Assembly: GCA_024679065.1 (NCBI GenBank)
Contig: JAGIQG010000009.1
Location: 62,434,001-62,498,000, forward strand
DNA length: 64,000 nucleotides
Reading direction: 5' to 3'
Source: Sphyrna mokarran
Lineage: Eukaryota
This document shows, piece after piece, positions 24,197 through 24,735 of this stretch. Positions within the stretch are counted from its first letter, which is position 1, and every line of letters begins with the position of its first letter. The notes under the pieces were generated by a model. The model searched no databases. It had not been told where the DNA came from and saw only the letters and a list, made by a program, of their open reading frames with translations. Both the position numbers and the translations under genes were made by a program.

Positions 24197-24735
24197 TGTA
24201 GTATAAGGGAGGTCAACAGATGCAATATGTTAATATATAACATAGACAATGCTGTACCTAGGACACTAGTCAGTTACGTGTTAAGACAAGAGACAGAGAG
24301 GAGGTTGGCATCATGTTTCAGGGTAAAGTGCCTAATTTGTAACCTGTTTAGAAGGAATACTAATTAACAAATGTTAAGCAGATACCAGTGTTTGTCTCAA
24401 TCTAAGAGCCTTTTTTTTTGTTTTTATTCCAATTCAATTCAGAGTCTTAATAAGTTGAAACGTTCCCGATCCAAGTTGACAAGACAGGGCTCTCACATCC
24501 TGTCTTGGGCTTGATCTACATGATCCAAGCTGATTGGAGTAGGCATAGCTCCTCCTCCGAGGCTTGATCTCATTAGCATCTTAGCCAAAAGACCCAGATG
24601 CTGCTTTTAAAAATTGCTTCAAAATGAAGCTAAAATGTAACCTAACGACTTCAACCTAGGACAGCATGTCGATACTGCACTTCATCTTAGCCAAAAGGCC
24701 AAGAAAAGGATGGTGTAACTCAAAGACCTACAGCA
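24197..24735 (+). mobile_element. Gypsy-like 3' LTR preceded by polypurine tract, interrupted by the U2-headed retroposon
   Basis: GGGGGAGG|TGTAGT start; similarity to the LTR at 19466; ends 'ctacagca'. Confidence 0.6.
24411..24711 (-). mobile_element. U2 snRNA-headed, poly(A)-tailed retroposon (SINEU-like)
   Basis: 24671-24700 is the reverse complement of U2 nt ~11-40 (28/30 matches), with weaker match out to 24711; second U2-like segment at 24578-24600; AATAAA plus A-rich tail at 24428-24411. Confidence 0.8.

Follow-up and report, generated by a model that had tools for sequence, protein, structure and literature searches.

A short retroposon with a U2 snRNA head entered the 3′ LTR of an LTR retroelement as one unit, in antisense orientation and after integration of that host element, within the 64-kb stretch of DNA analysed here (the window). 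The insert probably represents a pre-existing element, either SINEU-like or a non-autonomous derivative of Tx1/Keno, that was moved by a poly(A) LINE. It occupies 24411..24755 on the minus strand (345 nt, with no coding capacity); the outer 5′ boundary may fall anywhere from 24739 to 24755, which gives a length of 329-345 nt, of which 28-44 nt lie 5′ of U2 +1. The original prediction had called the element SINEU-like, and its anatomy, namely a U2 5′ part, a length below 500 nt, an A tail, a target-site duplication (TSD) of about 10 bp and a 5′ extension, fits that name. The features of the insert and of its host are given in Table 1.

Table 1. Features of the U2-headed insert, its flanking duplication and the host LTRs (positions are those of the window).
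Feature	Position	Strand	Remarks
5′ extension	24712..24755	-	28-44 nt upstream of U2 +1
U2 snRNA nt 1-40	24671..24711	-	stem-loop I and branch-point pairing sequence; cmscan alignment
Spacer, 72 nt	24599..24670	-	A-T5 tract starts at element position 98
Second copy of U2 stem-loop I	24577..24598	-	20/22 identical to head, within extended hairpin
Hairpin unit A	24522..24569	-	inner stem with 8/10 Watson-Crick pairs
Hairpin unit B	24468..24516	-	inner stem with 9/9 pairs
AATAAA and A-rich tail	24411..24428	-	AATAAA at 24428-24423, tail directly after, to 24411
TSD copy, tail end	24398..24410		exact core 24398-24407
TSD copy, head end	24756..24768		exact core 24756-24765
Host 5′ LTR	19469..19743	+	275 nt, TG...CA, without insert (empty site)
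Host 3′ LTR, interrupted	24197..24826	+	272 nt net of insert and duplication

The Rfam scan of the 64-kb window placed U2 (RF00004) at 24711-24511 on the minus strand with 42.4 bits and an E value of 4e-5, a score that falls short of the RF00004 gathering score of 46, and this was the sole strong match among the seven listed, the other six having E values of 2.9-9.7. In the Rfam alignment, U2 nt 11-40 are identical at 28/30 positions, and the two mismatches fall on nt 28 and nt 34, the latter within the branch-point pairing sequence. The minus-strand U2 head of the original prediction, with its stem-loop I and its mutated branch-point pairing sequence, is thereby borne out, but the limit that had been set at about nt 11 is not, as the match continues beyond nt 11 as far as nt 1, albeit with a few differences. 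The earlier claim that U2 nt 41 onward is absent also stands: a U2 3′ part was not listed elsewhere in the 64-kb window by the Rfam scan, and the body scanned alone against Rfam gave no U2 match at E<=10. With a score below the gathering threshold and a body devoid of such a match, a full-length U2 gene or pseudogene was rejected. The U2 match of the head stops at nt 40, and the Keno/Utopia break is at nt 38/39; in Utopia, the downstream U2 sequence resumes at nt 39 (PMC4640811), and the Keno insertion site is given as U2 'nucleotide 37' (PMC6136364). However, because the 5′ U2 piece of SINEU-3 is reported to be 32 nt long (PMC4494074), a head end at nt 40 does not discriminate a Keno/Utopia origin.

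The body had been described as wholly non-U2, a description contradicted by the second copy of U2 stem-loop I that it holds. This copy was found with an E value of 0.004 against the window, and only 1/200 shuffles folds as well as its hairpin. Both U2 copies share the base change at nt 28, an agreement that is too weak to weigh, as the second copy ends on that base. A tandem arrangement, in which the extension and head would duplicate the spacer and second U2 copy, was rejected, since 811-1204 of 2000 shuffles score equally. In the spacer, cmscan places the A-T5 tract on the Sm-site region of U2, a weak placement noticed post hoc; the tract is unique within 300 nt, a stretch of 11 positions holds such a tract in ~1% of cases, and the purines 3′ of it depart from the U2 model.

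Downstream of the second U2 copy, hairpin units A and B have common ends of 9 nt and 12 nt, which are identical at 20/21 positions, around inner segments that differ, and the score of the A-versus-B alignment was reached by 0/2000 shuffles; judged from their sequences, the two units are an internal duplication. The inner stems pair flush, with a pairing reached by 107 (A) and 3 (B) of 200000 shuffles and by 43/63819 (A) and 2/63817 (B) of the window stretches, the element's own being counted. Of the pairs compared between the two units, three are changed in both partners, five are unchanged, and one has lost its pairing in A in the manner of CpG decay, a covariation that involves two sequences only, in a register picked by eye. 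The whole insert folds with a z of -3.77, and 0/100 shuffles were as good; the fold of the body was equalled by 11/300 GC-matched real windows, that of A and B alone by 17/200 shuffles, and that of unit A alone by 61/200. Structure in the body is therefore likely, on a moderate signal. A ribozyme or snoRNA in the body received no Rfam support, the three matches obtained being weak and unrelated (E 0.9-4.7). At the 3′ end, beyond a short stretch that follows unit B, the AATAAA and the A-rich tail are present as had been described, the one running directly into the other.

The host element spans 19469-24826 and carries the marks of an LTR retroelement, that is, paired TG...CA LTRs, a primer-site-like stretch, a purine tract and an outer repeat. 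Immediately after the 5′ LTR lies a TGG-starting stretch (19744-19758), which we take to resemble a primer-binding site; an 8-nt purine tract (24189-24196) immediately precedes the 3′ LTR, whose last base deviates from the CA end. Between the outer 5-mers, the sole difference is TG against CA, which is what CpG decay produces. The two LTRs are identical at only 141/194 and 51/69 positions (73% overall), which indicates that the host element is old, and 0/60 frames of at least 40 aa from its internal region reach the Pfam cut-off. Also inside the host element, at approximately 20780-24000, a C-rich stretch on the left and a G-rich stretch on the right carry nested degenerate inverted arms (20781-20806/23942-23967 and 21058-21094/23260-23296), and are probably the remnant of a nested DNA transposon.

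Several other repeats were observed in the window. A tRNA-headed SINE is present in five aligned copies (17150-17455, 25830-26125, 47686-48030, 57845-58180 and 61445-61765; mean column identity 74%), which we presume to be of the HE1/V-SINE type. HE1 is listed for sharks and rays in PMC3747384, and on this presumed identity the genome looks like that of a shark or ray. The 26-kb copy departs from the others in its tail, which it has in common with the short repeats at 7346-7461 and 12439-12616, and no tRNA gene was found in the 64-kb window. A direct repeat of 454 nt (50005-50455/51716-52158, 93% identical), the ends of which are not TG...CA, is better explained by local duplication than as a pair of LTRs. 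A MITE-like sequence at 45382-46426 has near-perfect termini and long inverted arms with 77% identity over 273 nt. A dispersed repeat of 1.1 kb occurs in opposite orientations at 4947-6034 and 52143-53264 (72% identical), the frames of it that were searched giving no Pfam match, and an assembly gap of 128 N occupies 30175-30302.

Insertion into an LTR, as originally predicted, was confirmed by the uninterrupted sister LTR at the other end of the host element. Sensitive self-comparison of the window ties both flanks of the insert to 19460-19742: the left flank (24188-24405) aligns to 19460-19673, the right flank (24758-24825) aligns to 19668-19742, and the two alignments converge on a single word of the sister LTR, which is the TSD core. 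The flank scores were 112 (left) and 53 (right), neither of which was reached by any of 1000 shuffles, and the right-flank score was reached by 0/2000 real windows, whereas the insert's own parts showed no alignment to the sister-LTR region, 18/300 and 40/300 shuffles being equally good. No TSD had been evident to the earlier reading. However, an exact 10-nt direct repeat lies on both sides of the insert and extends to 11/13 identical positions, which corresponds to a TSD of 10-13 bp, and both flanks meet on that one word. By chance, a 10-nt match at the TSD geometry occurred in 8/5000 random window pairs, and in 16/5000, including 7 self-overlaps, when the test was repeated. A longer TSD of ~28 nt is disfavoured, its two candidate copies being unlike outside the 13-nt core, and the split alignment leaves this boundary undecided.

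Split alignment to the sister LTR under three scorings gave the best right-hand start at 24740 (166/210/111), with the TSD boundary slightly below it (157/206/106); a boundary at 24711, where the 5′ end of the element had originally been placed, scored well below both (131/178/58). A cheap-gap global alignment of the LTR pair scattered the middle and placed no single clean gap. For the outermost 16 nt (24740-24755), which show a weak alignment to the sister LTR, the earlier suggestion that the 5′-most bases may be LTR sequence joined by microhomology may hold; the 5′ extension matched neither the LTR region nor the insert's body significantly.

A duplication of 10-13 bp together with an A tail constitutes the marks of target-primed reverse transcription, and a TSD of this length with AATAAA adjoining poly(A) fits the process as carried out by the L1/Tx1 clade. 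The TSD and the empty sister LTR thus uphold the original proposal that the element moved as a unit by means of a poly(A) LINE. Because the insert is present in one LTR only, and because its TSD core is identical at 10/10 positions as against the diverged LTR pair, it is younger than its host. For comparison, TSDs of full-length human L1 are reported to peak at 14-16 bp (PMC2912911), and those of SINEU-1 are given as ~10 bp (PMC4494074).

Among known systems, SINEU-1 (U2-headed subfamilies C/E/F/H/J), SINEU-2 and SINEU-3 of crocodilians resemble the insert in having a U2 segment near the 5′ end, a length below 500 nt, a poly(A) tail and a TSD of ~10 bp, and further in more than one snRNA-derived segment, a short 5′ extension and another transposon as the target, according to the descriptions in PMC4494074. 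By contrast, the insert has no visible U1 part, carries a tandem hairpin body, resides in a genome that is apparently not crocodilian, and targeted an LTR, the SINEU target described being Mariner-N4 (PMC4494074). Three features are thus shared with SINEU, namely the snRNA-derived 5′ region, the size and tail, and the LINE-type insertion, for an element known from one copy. The 28-44 nt that precede U2 +1 are perhaps a fixed part of a longer element, and SINEU-2 is comparable in this respect, with 5′ extensions of 31 and 42 nt in its subfamilies that were read as signs of master copies (PMC4494074).

Likeness extends to LINEs and to chimeric retrocopies. Tx1-11_Crp and Tx1-4_AMi, which are U2- or U1-headed Tx1 LINEs, and Keno carry an snRNA head as the insert does (PMC4494074, PMC6136364), the head of the insert ends near the Keno site (PMC6136364), and Tx1-4_AMi and Tx1-8_Crp are reported to prefer LTR elements as targets (PMC4494074), the insert also being in an LTR; unlike the Tx1/Keno LINEs, however, the insert has no coding capacity in its 345 nt and lies outside a U2 gene. 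Utopia, an RLE-type element that targets U2, breaks U2 near nt 38/39, close to the break of the insert (PMC4640811), but the insert has no U2 nt 39 onward downstream of it, its TSD is host LTR sequence and it has no ORF. The snRNA/LINE-1 chimeric retrocopies have a sense snRNA fragment at the 5′ side, a TSD and an A tail, as the insert has (PMC13174262, PMC2912911). Kojima 2015 reports no SINEU outside crocodilians (PMC4494074), PMC5381603 and PMC4758252 cite SINEU for crocodilians only where they refer to it, and the accessible text of PMC5499810 makes no mention of snRNA. No snRNA-headed SINE from cartilaginous fish was found in the literature searched; entries may exist in Repbase or Dfam.

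Both ordinary and sensitive self-comparison found no second copy of the insert in the 64-kb window. Crocodilian SINEU families are reported at ~140-7,700 copies per genome (PMC4494074), and at such numbers a blank in 64 kb is expected with or without a family. Scans with body motifs returned four metagenome, no viral and two prokaryote-genome loci, and all six were rejected as chance, since no match continues past the motif region; a control motif from the window's common SINE returned 0 genome and 0 viral loci, so that blanks in these collections are uninformative. In the word search of sequencing runs, one of the 24 runs listed had a 0.63 share of the words and may be the source of the window, the other 23 had shares of 0.05-0.18, too small to be evidence of copies, and no RNA run was among those listed. 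No partner LINE was detected in the window, where comparison of the seven other AATAAA-A ends with the tail of the insert gave scores of 14-16 and where none of the 137 frames searched, among 173 stop-free frames of at least 70 aa, was at the Pfam cut-off.

A pre-existing element fits these features better than a one-off chimera. An RNA that began upstream of U2 +1 and held two U2 segments implies that a source locus with these joints already existed, and, because the second U2 segment sits inside the body, the body had met U2 before the present insertion. Furthermore, the 28-44 nt before U2 +1 speak against a template switch, which should end at or before U2 +1. As snRNA promoters lie outside the transcribed RNA, the U2 head cannot promote itself. 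The 5′ extension fits transcription from a flanking promoter instead, and transcription from flanking promoters was proposed for SINEU by Kojima 2015 (PMC4494074). Also on record are repeated U1/U2 additions in SINEU-1, snRNA-headed Tx1 families and a preference of Tx1 families for LTR elements (PMC4494074).

Under the preferred reading, that of a pre-existing element, the insert would be a single dead copy of a short non-coding SINEU-type retroposon, whose source locus would have joined the extension, the U2 head and the body before the present copy arose. RNA polymerase II would transcribe this locus from a start upstream of U2 +1, the transcript would be polyadenylated at AATAAA, and a LINE of the L1/Tx1 clade would reverse-transcribe the RNA in trans, with the tandem hairpins near the 3′ end as the likeliest candidate for the recognition signal of the LINE protein. 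For the body, a shortened derivative of a U2-headed Keno/Tx1 LINE and a SINE body of separate origin are about equally probable. Against this reading stand the failure to find a second copy, in searches of little power, or a partner LINE in the window, and the moderate structure signal; the extension may instead stem from a second template switch or be filler, the best split (24740) does not coincide with the TSD boundary, and the global alignment shows no clean gap.

The main alternative, which we consider unlikely while granting it a modest chance, is a one-off chimera, in which, in the course of one LINE insertion, reverse transcription began on the 3′ end of a LINE or an mRNA, jumped to a 3′-truncated U2 RNA and then either jumped to another template or added filler, and the product never spread. 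The single copy seen agrees with such an event, and the AATAAA adjoining the A tail fits a LINE 3′ end. Chimeras of snRNA and LINE-1, U2 among them, are known as independent and usually non-propagating events (PMC13174262, there of U6). However, two switches would be needed to account for the 28-44 nt extension, and single-event chimeras predict neither this extension nor the second U2 segment within the body.

Read-through of a Keno-disrupted U2 gene appears doubtful, with a small chance of being correct. Here, the 5′-truncated 3′ end of a Keno or Utopia element would lie in a U2 gene, and a transcript started upstream would have been retroposed, so that the extension would be upstream DNA of the U2 gene, the body a LINE 3′ UTR and the copies few. 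The end of the head at nt 40, 2-3 nt from the Keno/Utopia site (PMC4640811, PMC6136364), is what such an origin would give; on the other hand, the target was LTR sequence rather than U2, and the 32-nt piece reported for SINEU-3 indicates that breaks in this region are not Keno-specific (PMC4494074).

A processed pseudogene of a variant snRNA, with stem-loop I, the branch-point sequence and an Sm site at native spacing, new 3′ hairpins and a polyadenylated read-through source, is very improbable: the A-T5 tract at position 98 is aligned to the U2 Sm-site region, which would occur by chance in ~1% of cases, and the hairpins come after this Sm-like tract as in U2, but the tract was noticed post hoc and is followed by purines that differ from the model, no U2 match at E<=10 is obtained from the body by itself, the total score lies under the gathering threshold, and an snRNA does not end in AATAAA and an A tail. 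A Keno or Utopia element in place in a U2 gene was rejected, since LTR sequence and not U2 nt 39 onward follows the tail; that the body alone holds no U2 match and that no U2 3′ part occurs elsewhere in the window likewise exclude a LINE located within a U2 gene.

Kojima 2015 left open both the transcription of SINEU and the role of its snRNA head (PMC4494074). A bolder extension of the pre-existing-element reading, to which we attach only a slim chance, is that the insert belongs to a U2-mimic family of sharks and rays, independently evolved, multi-copy and snRNA-headed, whose RNA would keep stem-loop I, the branch-point pairing sequence and an Sm-type site at native spacing and would enter snRNP assembly for stability or nuclear delivery, and whose selected 3′ hairpin pair would recruit a Tx1/Keno LINE that prefers the host LTR family; if true, snRNA heads, being unable to serve as internal promoters, would gain a first function that is open to testing. 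If the insert is a single chimera, it is a mere curiosity. Were such an element established in a second vertebrate lineage, recurrence of snRNA-headed retroposons would be shown, and models of upstream promoters and of target preference could be tested outside crocodilians on an element that has a 5′ extension and a clean empty site.
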